A stretch of DNA of 43,085 nt. Origin: a virus. Position numbers and translations under genes: made by a program. Shown piece after piece: positions 1 through 36,965 of the stretch; position 1 is the stretch's first letter, and every line of letters starts with the position of its first letter. The notes below the pieces were generated by a model. It was not told the DNA's origin. It searched no databases and saw nothing but the letters and a program-made list of their open reading frames with translations. Location: IMG/VR virus record IMGVR_UViG_3300006201_000477; one strand, written 5' to 3'.

Positions 1-22
1 ATGTAATTCCTCCTAAATTACT
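1..22. repeat. Terminal direct repeat; identical to 43064..43085
   Basis: ATGTAATTCCTCCTAAATTACT occurs at both window ends. A near copy lies at 591..612. Confidence 0.9.
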
Positions 23-123
23 TTTATCTTATTTTTCTAGCTTTATAATTTCTTGTTCTAGCATTGGCTTCCCTCCTTTTTTATGGTAAAATAAAGTATT
101 ATTATATTTATCTTCATTTTACC

Positions 124-1970: not shown

Positions 1971-2204
1971 TCATTTGACATCACTTTTAGCGGAATCCGA
2001 TTCATTGAGTCTCGCCGGGAATGACAACAGTACTTTGTATTCACGCCGGATAACATCAAATGTACACGAAAGGTACGGCACAATATCCGCGCTTTTCATT
2101 TGCCCAAGTTCGTCAAAAAGCATTTCTGTAAACAAAGTTTGATGCTCCAAAGGGCTCCTTGCAATCTGGCTTGCTTCATACGACATTTGCATTATATCTC
2201 TCAT
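1971..2204 (-). CDS. Hypothetical early protein
   Basis: 77-aa ORF in the early-operon orientation. No motif recognised. Confidence 0.4.
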   Translation of the reverse strand: MRDIMQMSYEASQIARSPLEHQTLFTEMLFDELGQMKSADIVPYLSCTFDVIRREYKVLLSFPARLNESDSAKSDVK

Positions 2205-2387
2205 TTTCCTTTACCTCCCTTTTATACTGGCTCCTACGACTCTTTCTCTGAAAATCTCCTTTATATTCCAATCATCGGAACACTCTCAGAAAACAATTGT
2301 GACAAACATTGATTTTGATGAAGAATTGCTATTTACGAGTACAACAAGGCAGCACAGGCACTTAACGATACCGAAGAAAGCACTGGT

Positions 2388-2570
2388 TCAGAACTTTTCT
2401 AAACCGCCTGTCATTTCTGTGAGCATAGCTCTGGCAACCACTATATCCCTTAGCACTTTTGCCAGAGCTATGACTTTCTCTGTACTGCGCCCATTCATTT
2501 CCTTGCATATCAACTCTATAGCATTGTCTATCCCGTTTAAAGTTTCATTACTTACATGACATCTGAACAT
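2388..2570 (-). CDS. Hypothetical early protein
   Basis: 60-aa ORF co-oriented with the early operon. Confidence 0.4.
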   Translation of the reverse strand: MFRCHVSNETLNGIDNAIELICKEMNGRSTEKVIALAKVLRDIVVARAMLTEMTGGLEKF

Positions 2571-2674
2571 GTTCTCACCTCCTAGTTGCAGTTTTCCTAT
2601 TACTTTCCTCTTTCTGTTGGTAACTTACATTATTCGTTGTTCATGTCCGTTTTCGGTCATTTCAAATCAAAAAA

Positions 2675-2884
2675 TTACACTTTTATATTTTCAATACCAA
2701 CACCAACTTTATCACAAATTCGAACAATTTCAGAAAACCCCGCACTACCAATATTTTTTTCGTATCTACGATATGTAGTATACGGAATACCAACAAACTT
2801 GGCAAACTTTTCTTGGGTCATTCCTGCTATTGCTCGTACCTCTGCAAGTGTTACTTTTCCTGTTATTTGTATATTTTTATTCAT
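2675..2884 (-). CDS. Cro-like XRE HTH regulator
   Basis: 69 aa with HTH core MTQEKFAKFVGIPYTTYRRYEKN. Divergent from the CI-like gene. Confidence 0.8.
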   Translation of the reverse strand: MNKNIQITGKVTLAEVRAIAGMTQEKFAKFVGIPYTTYRRYEKNIGSAGFSEIVRICDKVGVGIENIKV

Positions 2885-2905
2885 TTTTTCACCTCACTTT
2901 CCTTA

Positions 2906-3019
2906 TGTCCATTTTCGGTCATATTATTATATTATCATCTATTTTATAATGTGTCAACCCAAAAACGGTCAAATATTTAAAAAATAAATATTGCAATCTG
3001 TCCATTTTTGGATTATAAT
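2906..3019. promoter_or_regulatory. Lysogeny/lysis switch: back-to-back divergent promoters with operator repeats
   Basis: Plus strand: TTGCAA at 2991..2996, a 17-nt spacer, TATAAT at 3014..3019. Minus strand: TTGACA (complement of 2952..2957), a 17-nt spacer, TAATAT (complement of 2929..2934). Operator-like sites: TGTCCATTTTCGGTCA at 2906..2921, TGACCGTTTTTGGG (complement of 2958..2971) and TGTCCATTTTTGGA at 2999..3012. Confidence 0.65.
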
Positions 3020-6319: not shown

Positions 6320-7795
6320 ATGAAAAATGGTGCCCTATACATTCGCGTCAGCACTCATATGCAGGATGAGCTTTCCCCTGACGCCCAAAAACGGCTCCTT
6401 CTTGATTACGCCAAAGCAAACCATATTATTGTATCTGAAGATTATATCTTTGAAGAAAAAGGGATTTCTGGGAAAAAAGCTGATAAGAGGCCGCAATTCC
6501 AGCAGATGATTGCTCTTGCCAAAACAAAGCCCACTCCCTTTGATATTATTTTAGTATGGAAATTCTCACGCTTTGCCAGGAACCAAGAAGAATCTATTGT
6601 ATATAAATCTTTGTTAAAGAAACAAGGCGTTGAAGTCCTAAGTGTAAGTGAGCCTGTAGCAGAAGGCCCTTTTGGGAGCTTAATTGAACGTATTATTGAA
6701 TGGATGGATGAATATTACTCTATCCGCCTCTCTGGCGAAGTTATGCGGGGCATGACAGAAAAAGCCCTGCGGGGTGGCTATCAGGCAAGCCCGCCACTTG
6801 GATACCGCATGGACATTCCCAAAAAACCACCTGTTATTGTACCTGAAGAAGCTGCTGCCATCCGTTATATTTTTGATGCCTATGCTAACCAGAACAAAGG
6901 AATCTTTGAGATAGCACGCGCTTTAAATGAAATGGGTTATGAAACGCAACGCCACAAACCATTTGAACGCCGTTCTGTAGAATACATACTTCAAAATCCT
7001 ATGTACTGTGGCTTGCTTAGATGGAATAGACATTGTAATGAGACAAATGAGATTAAAGATGAATCTGAATGGATTATCCGAAAAGGGGAACATCAGGCAA
7101 TTATTTCCGAGAATTTATTTAATAAAGCCCAAGAACGTTATTATACTGAATACAAGCCAAAAGGGGCAAGGCCTTCTAGCACTTATAAACATTGGCTATC
7201 TGGCCTTGTAAAATGCCCTGCCTGTGGCCGTACCATGATTGCTAAAGCAGTAAAATCTTCAGGAAGAATCCTATTCTATTTTACTTGTTATGGATATAGT
7301 AAAGGAAAATGTGCCGCCAAAACTTCAGTTGCTGCTACTAAGTTAGAGCCTGCTGTGCTCTCTTCTATCCAAGAAGCCTTCCAGGCAGAAACCTTTTCCT
7401 ATAGCAATCTTATCTCCCCTAGGCAGCCTGAATCTACTTCTGCAGAACAAAAACGTATTAACGATTTAATCCACAGAGTTACTTTTAAGGAACAGCGTGC
7501 CCGTGACGCATATATCAATGGTATTGATACTATGGAAGAATATAAAAAGAACAAGCTTCGGTTACAGGAAGAACGGCAGCGGCTAGAAGAAAAACTTGCC
7601 CTTCTCTCTCCTATTAAGCCGAATCTTTCCCCTTCAGAAGTAAAGCAGCTAATGCAAAAACGCTTGAAAAGTGTCTATGATGTGCTTCTATCTAATGCTG
7701 ATATTCCCACGAAAAACTCTACGCTCAAAAATGTAGTAGAAAAGATTATCTATAATAAAGAAACAGATACGGTAAAGCTCTATTACTATTCTTAA
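6320..7795 (+). CDS. Large serine recombinase (integrase)
   Basis: Resolvase catalytic N-terminus (ALYIRVSTHMQ). A recombinase domain follows, then a Cys zinc ribbon (CPACGR...CYGYSKGKC) and a C-terminal coiled coil. Confidence 0.95.
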   Translation: MKNGALYIRVSTHMQDELSPDAQKRLLLDYAKANHIIVSEDYIFEEKGISGKKADKRPQFQQMIALAKTKPTPFDIILVWKFSRFARNQEESIVYKSLLKKQGVEVLSVSEPVAEGPFGSLIERIIEWMDEYYSIRLSGEVMRGMTEKALRGGYQASPPLGYRMDIPKKPPVIVPEEAAAIRYIFDAYANQNKGIFEIARALNEMGYETQRHKPFERRSVEYILQNPMYCGLLRWNRHCNETNEIKDESEWIIRKGEHQAIISENLFNKAQERYYTEYKPKGARPSSTYKHWLSGLVKCPACGRTMIAKAVKSSGRILFYFTCYGYSKGKCAAKTSVAATKLEPAVLSSIQEAFQAETFSYSNLISPRQPESTSAEQKRINDLIHRVTFKEQRARDAYINGIDTMEEYKKNKLRLQEERQRLEEKLALLSPIKPNLSPSEVKQLMQKRLKSVYDVLLSNADIPTKNSTLKNVVEKIIYNKETDTVKLYYYS

Positions 7796-10549: not shown

Positions 10550-11029
10550 TCACCAAGCCCAAAGAACAGAACTACTAGAAGGCGTAGAAGATTGGATCGC
10601 CACTCCTTTGACACTCGTTGCCACAGGCACCCCATTGGAAAAATACACTGGCTGCATAGTAGAACCTGCATTGGCATTTAACTTATTGGCAGAACTGGCA
10701 GCTCCCCCTGCTGTAGCAGAACCTGCATAGGTATGGGTATGCCCCGTTTTTGCAAAAGCAGAAGCATGGTATCCATCTACAGTATCTGCATTACATTGAT
10801 CCTCCTCTGCTTTCGCATCCCATTTTCTCTTTTCTTCTTCGGTTACATGAACCTTCCCATCTTTCACATGTTTTTCTGTTTCTTCTACTTTCTTCTTTAA
10901 ATACACATCATTGTTTAGTAATGCCCCTTTTATCCCATTTTCTAGCTCTGCTGTTAAATACTCCTCTTCTTCTACCTGATGGATCTCCTGCTGAAACTCT
11001 GGTGGTTCTTTGATTGCTAAATTTCCCAT
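10550..11029 (-). CDS. Tail fibre protein (paralog 2)
   Basis: The N-terminal ~80 aa are alignable with 13867..14520 (M-x-NL-x-IK-x-P-x-EF...NND-x-YLK-x-K...EEEK-x-KWD). The C-terminus reads GHTHTYAGSATAGGAA. Confidence 0.7.
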   Translation of the reverse strand: MGNLAIKEPPEFQQEIHQVEEEEYLTAELENGIKGALLNNDVYLKKKVEETEKHVKDGKVHVTEEEKRKWDAKAEEDQCNADTVDGYHASAFAKTGHTHTYAGSATAGGAASSANKLNANAGSTMQPVYFSNGVPVATSVKGVAIQSSTPSSSSVLWAW

Positions 11030-11096: not shown

Positions 11097-11223
11097 TTGC
11101 AATCTATTTCTTTTTGTGTTATACTACCTTTATCAAAGGGAACACCACCCACAAAGTGGTTAGCCTCTATATTTTAAGTGAAATAACTGCCTGTCCGGCT
11201 AAGACAAGGGCAGTTATTTTTTT
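11097..11223 (+). ncRNA. Candidate antitoxin sRNA (promoter to terminator), convergent with the holin-like toxin ORF
   Basis: TTGCAA at 11097..11102, a 17-nt spacer, then TGtTATACT with its -10 at 11120..11125. Terminator stem 11181..11191 / 11209..11219 is followed by T8. CACCACCC at 11143..11150 is complementary to the toxin SD GGGUGGUG. Confidence 0.45.
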
Positions 11224-11225
11224 GC

Positions 11226-11312
11226 CTATTTCCTATTCTCTAAACAGGAGATAAGCGCAAGCAAGAATAACCCGAATGTCAACATCAATGATATTGCTTC
11301 GTATGTACTCAT
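11226..11312 (-). CDS. 28-aa hydrophobic holin-like toxin (type I toxin candidate); not in the ORF track
   Basis: Translated by hand: MSTYEAISLMLTFGLFLLALISCLENRK. SD GGGGGGTGGTG lies just upstream. An extended -10 (TGtTATAAT, complement of about 11381..11389) is also upstream. Confidence 0.6.
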   Translation of the reverse strand: MSTYEAISLMLTFGLFLLALISCLENRK

Positions 11313-11418
11313 GTGCACCACCCCCCTTCTTTGGTAAAAAGAGAGGCAAACTACCCTATCTGTGGTGTCCCTTATGTTTTATTATAACACAATCCTTCGA
11401 ATGGTTCTATTCCTTTTT

Positions 11419-11811
11419 TTATAATACTTTCTTGGCTGCCCCATTTACTCCTACATACATACTACACCTCTTTACCTTCCCATTTACCCCTGCATAGGCT
11501 GCTTGGATTGCCCTGCTTACGCCACTCACTCCTACAAAGGAACCATGGTTGTCATTACAAGCTGTGTTGCAAGTCCCTGTACAGGTTCCTTTACATGTTT
11601 TTTCACATTCTCCCTCACAGGTATCCTCACAACTTCCTTCACAATCCCCTTCACAGCTTCCTTCACAGTCTCCCCCACAACTATCTGTACATTCCGTATA
11701 ACAAGTATTGTCGCAACCATCACAATACCCTACACAACCATCATCACAACCCCCACATCCTGTACACTCCCCACAAATATTTTCACAACTATCCCCACAT
11801 TCCCACGCCAT
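11419..11811 (-). CDS. CXXX-repeat cysteine-rich protein (candidate radical SAM substrate) with a non-Cys C-terminal tail
   Basis: 22 Cys in residues 5..85. Fourteen consecutive Cys sit at exact i+4 spacing (C33..C85). The C-terminus carries two Y-x-GVNG-x-x-K repeats. Confidence 0.8.
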   Translation of the reverse strand: MAWECGDSCENICGECTGCGGCDDGCVGYCDGCDNTCYTECTDSCGGDCEGSCEGDCEGSCEDTCEGECEKTCKGTCTGTCNTACNDNHGSFVGVSGVSRAIQAAYAGVNGKVKRCSMYVGVNGAAKKVL

Positions 11812-34052: not shown

Positions 34053-34783
34053 TTAATCAAAACTAAAGGCATCTGGCAGCAGAATCCTAGTGACGCCATA
34101 CCGCATAGAATCCATTCCATGTGAAAATTCATGATCTGGCTTATCGGTCAATTTTCCATCTCTATCTTTACCCCAACAATAATTATTAATCTCTTTTTTA
34201 AACTCTGTGCATTTTGGATGTACTACAATTTGATAATTCTGGATAAGCTGTATCCCATGATTTACACTATCCTTCCCTTTCCTAGAAGGCTCTGCCCGAA
34301 TTCCTTCTTCCTGTAATTCCGCTATACTCTTTGGTTCTGCACAATCACAGATAATCCTCTGCCCACCATATCCCATTTTCTTTATCTGTTCTGCAATCAT
34401 CTTATTCGTAACACCTGTTCGATACCATTCGTCAAATATGTATATCCGCATAGCAGCATTATCTACCACTTCACAAACAAACGCATTTGGGTCCGTAAAA
34501 CCAAAATCTAAGTTAAAGGCTGACTTAATCCCATTACGCCTGCGGATTTCCTCTATATCGAATTCTTCTTCCACTACATTGGTATAAATAAGTCCTTCTG
34601 CAATTCCCCATTCCCCTTCTCCTTCTATACGGTAGCGGCGTGGGTTATTCTTTTTCATCTTTAAGAAAATATTCTGATCTGCCTCATCTAACCATTCATT
34701 ACATTCCCATGTTGTAGTTTTTACGAAAACATCTTCCTCTGGCACATCAAAAAAACGAGCCTTTAACCAGCTCGTTGCACTCC
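34053..34783 (-). CDS. terL: Terminase large subunit, exon 2 (nuclease domain)
   Basis: The frame is open upstream of the track start. It reads (W)SATSWLKARFFDVPEEDVFVKTTTWECNEWL and continues into the nuclease domain. Confidence 0.75.
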
Positions 34784-35302
34784 CAAATATGTTCGCATAA
34801 CTTCGCTACAGTCATGCCGCCTTTTCGGCCGCTGCTGCTTTCACAACAGTTCAGACTATATCACAATCCTATAAAGGATTCTCCCTGTTTCGTGACGCTT
34901 GCCACTACTCTACTAATCCAAAAGAACGTTAATCGTGCTCTTTTGGCTTTCGATAGTCGTTGCACCTTTCAAAATGCTTTCCGCAAAACATAAAACTATC
35001 CCCGTTTCTCAATCGATTAGAAATCTGTTGTTGTGTCATTCCGTAAAATTCAGCACAATGGTTGAACCAACATAAATAACATCTCCTGTTTTCTTTACAC
35101 GGAAAAGATAAATAAAATATGGTTTTGCTTCCATTGGCAATATCTCCTTCTTATAGTACATATAATTTATACTATAATCAATTTATATTATCAATGTTAT
35201 TTGCACCTGACTTGGCTCATGATTGCCCTCGTCTTTACGTTAGGGTTTCCCATGAATTAAAGGAGTTTTCTGTATCAATCACCCAATACAGCCGCAAAAT
35301 TT
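34784..35302 (-). mobile_element. Group I-like self-splicing intron interrupting terL
   Basis: 519 nt lie between the two terL halves, with stops in the terL frame. The 5' exon ends in U, and CCGU can pair with the intron GCGG (U-G at the splice site). The intron ends in G. Joining the exons recreates TFNP-W-SATSW. Confidence 0.6.
34929..35134 (-). pseudogene. Decayed GIY-YIG-type homing endonuclease ORF within the intron
   Basis: AAGGAGA precedes the ATG at 35134. It encodes MEAKPYFIYLFRVKKTGDVIYVGSTIVLNFTE, then a stop. A shifted frame continues EFYGMTQQQISNRLRNGDSFMFCGKHFER. Confidence 0.4.
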
Positions 35303-35837
35303 ACGGATTAAATGTTAAAGTTATTTGCTTGAAATATCCCTCTGGCACTTCACCACGGATTGACATATCCAGCTTATTGAAATCATCTTCATTTGTAATT
35401 TCATAGGCTTCCTCGATCCACACAAAACATAACACGCCCTTATCAACCGAAATAGAAGTGATTTTCAATCCATCGTCTAATCCACGAAATAGAATTTTTT
35501 GCCCAGTATCAACCCTAGTAATCTGCATAGGGGACACCGTACACTCAAAATATGCGTCAAGCCCTAATCGATGAATGGCCCATTTTAGATCACTATACAC
35601 AGAATCTCGTAATGTATTTGAATAACGCCTAACGCATAATCCATTGCTTTGTGGATATTTGAACAACCGAACAATCATGTTCAACGCAGTTGTTTTACTT
35701 TTCTTTGAACCCCTGGAACCTTTACAAACACGGTATCGTTTCTTTGTGTGCCAAAAGTCTTTATAACCTCTCCCGACAATCGCTGGAAGGTTTATTCGAA
35801 ACGCCTCACTATTCCTCAATATCTGTCTCCCCTTCAA
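35303..35837 (-). CDS. terL: Terminase large subunit, exon 1 (ATPase domain)
   Basis: Walker A GSRGSKKSKT and Walker B-like CFVWIEEA. It ends ...ITLTFNP. The start is non-ATG: TTG at 35837, or TTG at 35819 with GGGGAG upstream. Confidence 0.8.
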
Positions 35838-36506: not shown

Positions 36507-36965
36507 TTAATTTTTTTCTAAAAATCTGTCATTTGTTTTTCTACAACTATCTGGTGAGCCTCCTACTTTGTTTGCAATTTGTACCCATGATAACCCTTCT
36601 ATGTAACGCAATTCCAGAATTCTTCTTGTCCTGCTATCACTCACCCCTTCTATCTTCTCTTCTATTATAGTAATTAATTCTAAAAGTTCCTGCTGCCTTT
36701 CTTCTAAATTACCTATCCTTTTTTCCAACAACCTTTTCTTTTGCTCATAATATGGATAGGGAAACCCTGTGATTCTTACGGTTCCTAATGACTTTTTCCC
36801 CTTCTTCCCACAAGATACCGAATCGGATTCTAAATAGTTGCTTTGATTCATCTTTTCTATTTCTCTTTGAAGCCCCTGAATCTTTATTTCTTTTTCTTCT
36901 ATTTCTGCCTTTAAATCATTTAACTGCCCTATCAAATATTTTAAATTTGCTCCTTCATGCCTCAA
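36507..36965 (-). CDS. Sigma-70 region-4-like late gene regulator (ArpU/RinA-like)
   Basis: C-terminal RRILELRYIEGLSWVQIANKVGGSPDSCRKTNDRF. The N-terminus is coiled-coil. Confidence 0.6.
   Translation of the reverse strand: MRHEGANLKYLIGQLNDLKAEIEEKEIKIQGLQREIEKMNQSNYLESDSVSCGKKGKKSLGTVRITGFPYPYYEQKKRLLEKRIGNLEERQQELLELITIIEEKIEGVSDSRTRRILELRYIEGLSWVQIANKVGGSPDSCRKTNDRFLEKN

Follow-up and report, generated by a model that had tools for sequence, protein, structure and literature searches.

A putative IA2-like group I intron in the tryptophan-179 codon of a phage large terminase gene

Introduction

The large terminase gene (terL) of the virus analyzed here is cut by gene callers into two or three fragments, and its two halves are separated by 519 nt that carry stop codons in the terL frame. 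The gene lies within a viral DNA of 43,085 nt (IMG/VR record IMGVR_UViG_3300006201_000477), the whole of which is referred to below as the window. The question raised by this locus is how one terminase could be produced from it, and a first-pass annotation made from the letters alone had proposed that the gap is a group I intron. We find the 519 nt (35302..34784, minus strand) best explained as an IA2-like group I intron lodged within the Trp179 codon of terL, the splicing of which is predicted from its sequence, and we assign this reading a probability of about 0.93.

Results and discussion

Excision of 519 nucleotides restores a continuous terminase frame

All terL features lie on the minus strand of the 43-kb window (Table 1). 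The exon 1 ORF (35837..35301), whose TTG start is the ORF finder's choice and an approximation, ends in ...KQITLTFNP followed by a TAA stop (35303..35301), which consists of the last exon base, U35303, and the two leading intron bases. The exon 2 frame is open from 34805 to a stop at 34053 and reads ...SATSWLKARFFDV. When U35303 is joined to G34783, exactly 519 nt are removed and a 421-codon ORF reading ...TFNP-W-SATSWLKARFFD is obtained, in which the Trp codon U/GG (the slash marking the insertion point) and the string TFNPWSATSWLKARFFD are recreated; CCG-UGG-AGU results from one placement of the 519 nt only. The in-frame stops of the gap and a splice after the U following CCG, restoring TFNP-W, had both been proposed in the first-pass annotation, and both proved correct to the base. 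An alternative 3' splice site at the in-frame G34796 was rejected because it would add four residues (SNIF) that are found in no homologue.

Comparison with uninterrupted terL homologues, a check that had been suggested along with the intron itself, bore out the exon junction, with 42 of 42 compared sequences continuous at this point. Thousands of such homologues were returned by a database search, the best 120 of which share 81–89% identity with the spliced product over lengths of 408–421 residues. The string TFNPWSATSWLKARFFD contains no gap and hardly varies across 12 homologous proteins and 30 genomic homologues that lack an intron. When the 12 proteins (82–89% identity) were aligned, TFNPWSA-SWLK-RFFD was invariant and the junction was free of gaps, the gap-free motif after ligation including TFNPWSATSW. 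The genomic homologues were drawn from a scan of a genome collection (GTDB) that yielded 34 loci; close relatives of terL account for 30, and each of these encodes a contiguous (T/S)FNPW as ...AAYCCNT/GG.... Their source genomes include Lachnospiraceae, [Clostridium] asparagiforme, Ruminococcus, Oribacterium and others, many being mouse-gut MAGs, and none of the 30 carries an intron at the NPW codon.

The spliced product contains a complete Terminase_3 domain (PF04466; 197.9 bits, E = 1.7e-58) and a complete Terminase_3C domain (PF17288; 71.5 bits, E = 1.3e-19), both above cut-off. It is a Terminase_3-type (PBSX/SPP1-like) large terminase in which the ATPase and the RNase-H-like nuclease domains are both found. 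Trp179 falls within Pfam Terminase_3 (residues 32–236) and also within residues 33–236, which align to the first 226 residues of the phage Sf6 gene 2 protein (4idh) and which we take as the ATPase domain. Residues 255–412 match the 212-residue phage large-terminase chain 2wbn, presumably the SPP1 G2P nuclease domain. The interruption had initially been placed between the ATPase and nuclease domains, a placement that does not stand, as residue 179 belongs to the ATPase domain and follows directly on TFNP. TFNP is found ∼33 residues downstream of a Walker-B-like VWIEE, and since terminase ATPases have a coupling motif (motif III) at this distance after Walker B, it is a candidate for the coupling motif position. 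By these comparisons, the intron appears to break a conserved catalytic motif in the ATPase domain, not a domain linker, and conserved catalytic motifs are, as a rule, the targets of homing endonucleases (PMC3984707).

Could the terminase instead be made as an ATPase polypeptide and a nuclease polypeptide that assemble without RNA splicing? The gene callers do give two ORFs, of 125–178 and 230 residues. However, the break falls within the ATPase domain, in a conserved motif; the conserved exon 2 residues SATSWLKARFFD sit 5' of any start codon, with twelve conserved residues preceding the first possible one; all 42 homologues are continuous here; and the spacer has a group I architecture with covariation support (below). 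A two-polypeptide terminase is thus scarcely credible.

Table 1. Positions of the terminase exons, intron helices, endonuclease stubs and neighboring features in the window
Feature	Position	Strand	Description
terL exon 1	35303..35837	-	N-terminal three quarters of ATPase domain; ends TFNP + U of Trp179 codon
terL exon 2	34053..34783	-	GG completes Trp179, then SATSWLKARFFD; end of ATPase domain and Terminase_3C nuclease domain
Group I intron, IA2-like (putative)	34784..35302	-	519 nt; 5' AAAUUUUGCGG, 3' AUAUUUG; omega-G at 34784
P1 and internal guide sequence	35292..35306	-	CCGU (35306..35303) with GCGG (35295..35292); covariance model
P10 5' strand	35300..35296	-	AUUUU
P10 3' strand	34779..34783	-	GGAGU; first five exon 2 bases, pairing with 35300..35296
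P2	35270..35291	-	9-bp hairpin, GNRA loop
P3 5' strand	35265..35260	-	within 35217..35265
P4	35255..35250 with 35222..35217	-	
P5	35245..35242 with 35229..35226	-	short hairpin
P6	34969..35210	-	UCAGGUGC (35210..35203) with GCAUUUUGA (34977..34969); loop holds endonuclease-gene remnant
P7	34854..34958	-	GACUA (34958..34954) with UAGUC (34858..34854); pseudoknot with P3
P7.1	34946..34918	-	enclosed in P7 span
P7.2	34905..34892	-	enclosed in P7 span
P3 3' strand	34886..34881	-	enclosed in P7 span
P8	34880..34865	-	enclosed in P7 span
P9	34849..34832	-	7 bp, GAAA loop
P9.1	34829..34819	-	
P9.2	34817..34795	-	8 bp, conserved loop GUAGCGA
Endonuclease N-terminal stub	35036..35149	-	RBS AAGGAG (35149..35144), ATG 35134, 32 codons: MEAKPYFIYLFRVKKTGDVIYVGSTIVLNFTE, then stop
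Endonuclease C-terminal stub	34929..35062	-	..CAEFYGMTQQQISNRLRNGDSFMFCGKHFERCNDYRKPKEHD, then stop; frame -1 relative to N-terminal stub
Large serine recombinase	6320..7795		
Candidate type I toxin-antitoxin locus	11116..11377	-	BsrG-like (RF01412)
Small hydrophobic ORF	11321..11226	-	31 residues
Cys-rich ORF	11419..11811	-	130 residues
Sigma-70 region-4 protein	36507..36965	-	152 residues

The intervening sequence has the anatomy of a group I intron

On the minus strand, 35312..34832 aligns with model positions 1–253 of the Rfam family RF00028 (Intron_gpI) at 39.8 bits (E = 7.5e-7 over both strands of the whole 43-kb window, and 1.6e-8 when 901 nt were searched). The search with this model that the first-pass annotation had called for was therefore positive from end to end at an E-value threshold only; with default settings, which apply the gathering scores, Rfam returned no match in the window, the intron scoring 39.8 against a gathering value of 50 bits, which is an operational cut-off and not a structural feature. 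The RF00028 alignment includes two insertions, 239 nt in the P6 loop and 64 nt between P7 and P3', and the sub-gathering score is probably due largely to these, that is, to an ORF remnant and to the P7.1/P7.2 insert, respectively.

RF00028 is the sole match to the intron among 4227 Rfam families. Group II introns, IStrons and inteins were considered along with assembly chimeras as such other elements also break phage genes (PMC12350094, PMC3984707), although nothing specific points to any of them at this locus. An intein is excluded by the in-frame stops, and no reverse transcriptase or transposase ORF is present in the insert. A chimera is excluded by identical independent contigs: a 719-nt stretch is 99.7–100% identical among three independent IMG/VR contigs, and a 41-aa intron ORF is recorded on 8–9 contigs, which derive from four or more JGI samples. 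Taken together, an intervening element of some other kind is a very remote prospect.

The termini of the intron, including its final G, are as first read, and the covariance model places P1 precisely where a pairing of GCGG with exon CCGU and a U-G pair at the 5' splice site had been suggested. This wobble, U35303·G35295, is invariant in the three copies that could be aligned across P1 (see below) and identical in Bacillus phage Silence. P10 is weak, with G·U in three of its five pairs, one pair being double-changed among copies (C-G / U-A / U·G). The GAAA-type hairpins noticed earlier correspond to GNRA-type loops, namely GUGA in L2 and GAAA in L9, and to a GAAAA loop; L9 is GAAA in every copy, while L2 is GAAA or GGAA in the other copies and of the GNRA type in the window, the ORF-containing copy L052, the ORF-less copy L057 and Silence. 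P6 of the window contains one U·U mismatch and two G·U pairs where other copies show A-U. P7 is expected to be the guanosine-binding helix.

The minimum-free-energy fold (z = −3.5) recovers the local hairpins P5, P7.1, P7.2, P8, P9, P9.1 and P9.2. The long-range pairings P3, P4, P6 and P7 are missing from this fold, which is to be expected of a ribozyme with a pseudoknot.

Group I introns of subgroup IA2 have P7.1 and P7.2 between the P7 5' and P3 3' strands and no large P5abc. On the strength of P7.1 and P7.2, a short P5 and a Twort-like core, the present intron is called IA2-like.

The loop of P9.2, GUAGCGA (34809..34803, minus strand), is invariant in the window and in copies L052, L057 and L050, and reads UUAGCGC in Silence, while five of the eight pairs in the stem beneath it are changed on both sides. 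An invariant loop over a covarying stem suggests a conserved tertiary contact.

Helices covary among copies at the same codon

Searches with the endonuclease remnant and intron words uncovered diverged copies of the intron inserted at the NPW codon. Compared with the window copy (519 nt, a deleted GIY-YIG remnant in the P6 loop, 39.8 bits), L057 (IMG/VR) is ORF-less, 301 nt long and scores 64.4 bits, above the gathering score; L052 (ENA), with 3' halves L050 and L051, spans 993 nt, encodes GIY-YIG and helix-turn-helix modules and gives partial Rfam matches of 22.6–23.1 bits; and the intron of Silence spans 800 nt, carries an annotated HNH endonuclease gene and has no Rfam match at E ≤ 0.01. 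The L057 terminase is only ∼52–67% identical in aligned pieces. The L057 intron matches that of the window at every base between P6' and the start of P7.1, and likewise over J8/7 and P7'. One further sequence, L068, is identical to the 5' half of the window intron until it diverges near the contig end, and is for this reason uninformative. The single metagenome match to the exon/intron junction pattern, L053, is a high-GC sequence and was discarded as chance.

Window, L052, L057 (ORF removed) and L050 were aligned, and the structure P1, P2–P9, P7.2, P9.1, P9.2 and P10 was named on this alignment. Across 76 pairs, 98.5% of 261 cells are standard pairs and 16 of the 76 are changed on both sides, values to be read in light of there being only 3–4 independent sequences, from which the structure was itself derived. 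Neither value was reached in any of 500 shuffles, and controls in which the 3' partners were slid by 1–3 columns gave 40–47% paired with 0–2 double changes. The double changes are located in P2, P3, P7.2 (two pairs), P8, P9, P9.1, P9.2 and P10. P4 and P6 show one-sided variation only, and P1, P5 and P7 are invariant; covariation of P7 is uninformative because this helix never varies. P7.1 has an unrelated sequence in each of three copies and forms a hairpin in each (z = −2.1 to −3.4). In Silence, P1–P4, P6, P7, P7.2, P8, P9, P9.1 and P9.2 are fully paired, with P4, P6, P8, P9.1 and P9.2 differing in sequence from the window helices, and P10, as read from the sequence, is barely formed. A candidate P5 in Silence was discarded as non-nested.

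A second group I intron was observed at the Walker-B codon (..WVWI/EEAYEI) of the related terminase genes L042 and L057. In L042 it occupies about 2165..3016 (∼850 nt), carries an ORF and, at 36.9 Rfam bits, likewise stays below the gathering score. The L057 locus covers just the 3' end of this intron (1..93), in the same gene that has the NPW-codon intron. The terL gene of the window has no intron at the Walker-B site.

The P6 loop holds a deleted homing endonuclease gene

The decayed homing endonuclease ORF noticed in the first-pass annotation is a GIY-YIG gene from which most of the coding sequence has been deleted. Its N-terminal stub starts MEAKPYFIYLFRVKKTGDVIYVGST and retains, of the GIY-YIG fold, the first GIY..YVG hairpin only. 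The match to Pfam GIY-YIG is weak (E = 0.054, 14.2 bits against a cut-off of 22.6) and covers ∼25 residues of the domain. Where the two align, the stub shares 88% identity with the N terminus of P0123, a protein whose GIY-YIG domain is full. The C-terminal stub, ...AEFYGMTQQQISNRLRNGDSFMFCGKHFERCNDYRKPKEHD followed by a stop, looks like a helix-turn-helix module. Its final codons overlap P6', J6/7, P7 and P7.1, and the ribozyme bases beneath the last of them are kept in the ORF-less L057.

The L052 endonuclease, by comparison, has a complete GIY-YIG domain (29.4 bits, cut-off 22.6) and two helix-turn-helix-like modules in ∼225 residues. The BLAST alignment breaks at intron positions 242/245 against L052 positions 351/834, such that 482 nt are absent and replaced by 2 nt, which makes the net loss 480 nt. 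The deletion junction lies near 35060, and ∼160 codons are lost. The window copy has no single frame in which a complete GIY-YIG domain and a DNA-binding domain are combined, and given ∼25 domain residues and an out-of-frame C-terminal stub, what is left is a remnant and not an enzyme. With the endonuclease gene lost in this way, self-homing is not expected, and the window intron is probably unable to home on its own.

In L052 (278..951), the GIY-YIG and DNA-binding halves lie in frames that differ by −1, with the break near an A-run in a sequence of 1.4x coverage. The window stubs (35134..34929, minus strand) show the same frame relation, as the 480-nt net deletion is a multiple of three. The endonuclease frame break may be older than the deletion, or this may be a one-in-three coincidence. 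A speculative and improbable reading is that this lineage ordinarily produces its full enzyme from the −1-split halves through a frameshift or in two pieces.

The decay of the endonuclease gene is clear, P6 contains a mismatch, and the Rfam score is under the gathering value, all of which would suit a dead, non-splicing relic within a terminase pseudogene of a decaying prophage. In contrast, the core helices and joining regions are all intact and in part identical to those of the ORF-less copy that passes Rfam, both exons are full-length with strongly conserved frames, and the sequence recurs at 99.7–100% in viral contigs of several samples. A relic is thus improbable, though less far-fetched than a terminase in two polypeptides.

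Predicted route of splicing

The chemistry of splicing, and its occurrence in vivo, are read here from sequence and would proceed as follows. Ribosomes translating exon 1 of the late transcript would stop at the UAA lying across the 5' splice site. Many introns in a Bacillus cereus-group survey begin with, or soon reach, an in-frame stop (PMC2504315), and ribosome stalling has been proposed as an aid to intron folding (PMC3984707). The guide GCGG and exon CCGU would form P1 with its U·G wobble, and a free guanosine held in P7 would attack after U35303. P10 (AUUUU with GGAGU) would then align exon 2 while the guanosine in P7 gives way to the terminal G34784, and exon ligation would give CCG-UGG-AGU and one terminase of 421 residues. 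The P6 loop of the intron formerly encoded a GIY-YIG homing endonuclease of the I-TevI-like type; the net 480-nt deletion in this phage left the RBS, the 32-codon stub and the out-of-frame C-terminal stub, and the window element would still splice, without self-homing. A speculative extension, which we consider doubtful, is that the RBS, the 32-codon stub and the splice-site UAA are kept so that ribosome traffic tunes folding, making late packaging subject to a splicing-dependent checkpoint.

Relation to known phage introns

The closest precedent is Bacillus megaterium phage Silence (KT001912.1), whose terminase gene has been described as interrupted by a group I intron (PMC4599081) and whose terL is annotated as a joined CDS. 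The terL genes of Silence and the window are of the same family and are interrupted at the same point, after the U of ...AAC CCG U/GG, in the Trp codon that follows (T/S)FNP. The two introns have in common P1 and its guide (CCGU with GCGG), the P3 and P7 strands, an ORF in the P6 loop and a UAGCG loop in P9.2. They differ in length and endonuclease type (800 nt with an HNH gene versus 519 nt with a GIY-YIG remnant), Silence is without an obvious P7.1, and its P4, P6, P8 and P9.1 sequences are unlike those of the window. The terminases are only 44–62% identical over two aligned halves, and the hosts are Bacillus in one case and gut Clostridia in the other.

Other group I introns in terL have been reported from prophages of the B. 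cereus group (term-IVS1 and term-IVS2), coliphage K1E and Streptococcus thermophilus phage 2972 (PMC2504315, PMC6356513, PMC3984707). As compared by description, none of these is placed at the present codon in the literature. Some terL-type introns bear endonuclease genes, and homologous introns may bear different ones (PMC2504315, PMC6356513, PMC3984707).

The anatomy is also reminiscent of the T4 td intron, and each of the two introns occupies a conserved phage gene. The td intron sits in the thymidylate synthase gene, is of the IA2 type with P7.1 and P7.2, and encodes in its P6 loop the GIY-YIG endonuclease I-TevI with a C-terminal helix-turn-helix. Whereas the td endonuclease is intact and drives homing, the window enzyme is without everything beyond the first beta-hairpin.

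Within a collection of cultured phages, the closest cores are those of the Intron_gpI-annotated introns of Twort-like Staphylococcus phages, with ∼80% identity over P3–P5 and P7–P9. These introns score 69–106 bits on RF00028, are ORF-less and 220–300 nt long, and are clustered beside a virion structural-protein gene, not in terL, with P1/guide sequences that differ from that of the window. Weaker core matches were found in Dickeya phage introns, and more in Escherichia and Bacillus phage records. When the surrounding 13 kb were compared with cultured phages by megablast, the matches were just intron-core stretches of ∼50–60 nt, and thus no close relative exists among those phages; the closest cultured-phage terminases share at most 54% identity.

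Since phage terminase introns are already known, one of them at the same codon, and terL group I introns are well documented, the element in the window is genuine but ordinary. It points to no new mechanism and opens no long-standing question. Its significance is in part one of annotation, as the correct product would be one 421-residue enzyme where gene callers split the gene and default Rfam misses the intron. The comparison also places one intron lineage at the same terminase codon in phages of Bacillus and of gut Clostridia, the states of which (an HNH gene, a GIY-YIG gene, a deleted remnant and no ORF) compactly exemplify a cycle of endonuclease gain, swap and loss.

Phage context of the intron

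By gene content, the window resembles the genome of a temperate tailed phage, encoding a large serine recombinase, a Terminase_2 small subunit and an SPP1-type portal. The carrier is a phage of gut Clostridia, with Lachnospiraceae as the probable host family.

Directly upstream of the small terminase gene and of the packaging genes lies a gene for a protein with a coiled-coil N terminus and a sigma-70 region-4 helix-turn-helix (PF08281, 27.8 bits), which may be a late-gene regulator.

A candidate type I toxin-antitoxin locus is situated in the gap between ORFs 10550..11029 and 11419..11811. It matches the full BsrG model with 35.7 bits (gathering 55; E = 5e-5 for the window), and its small ORF encodes a hydrophobic peptide, MVHMSTYEAISLMLTFGLFLLALISCLENRK, with an above-cut-off match to Pfam Hol_Tox (PF16935; 44 bits, E = 2e-11). 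The adjacent Cys-rich ORF, for which no Pfam match was found, encodes a protein with a very high content of Cys, Gly, Asp and Glu and with CxxxC-type repeats (MAWECGDSCENICGECTGCGGCDDGC...). Tandem DNA repeats with periods of 12, 24 and 36 occupy 11581..11682 within this ORF.
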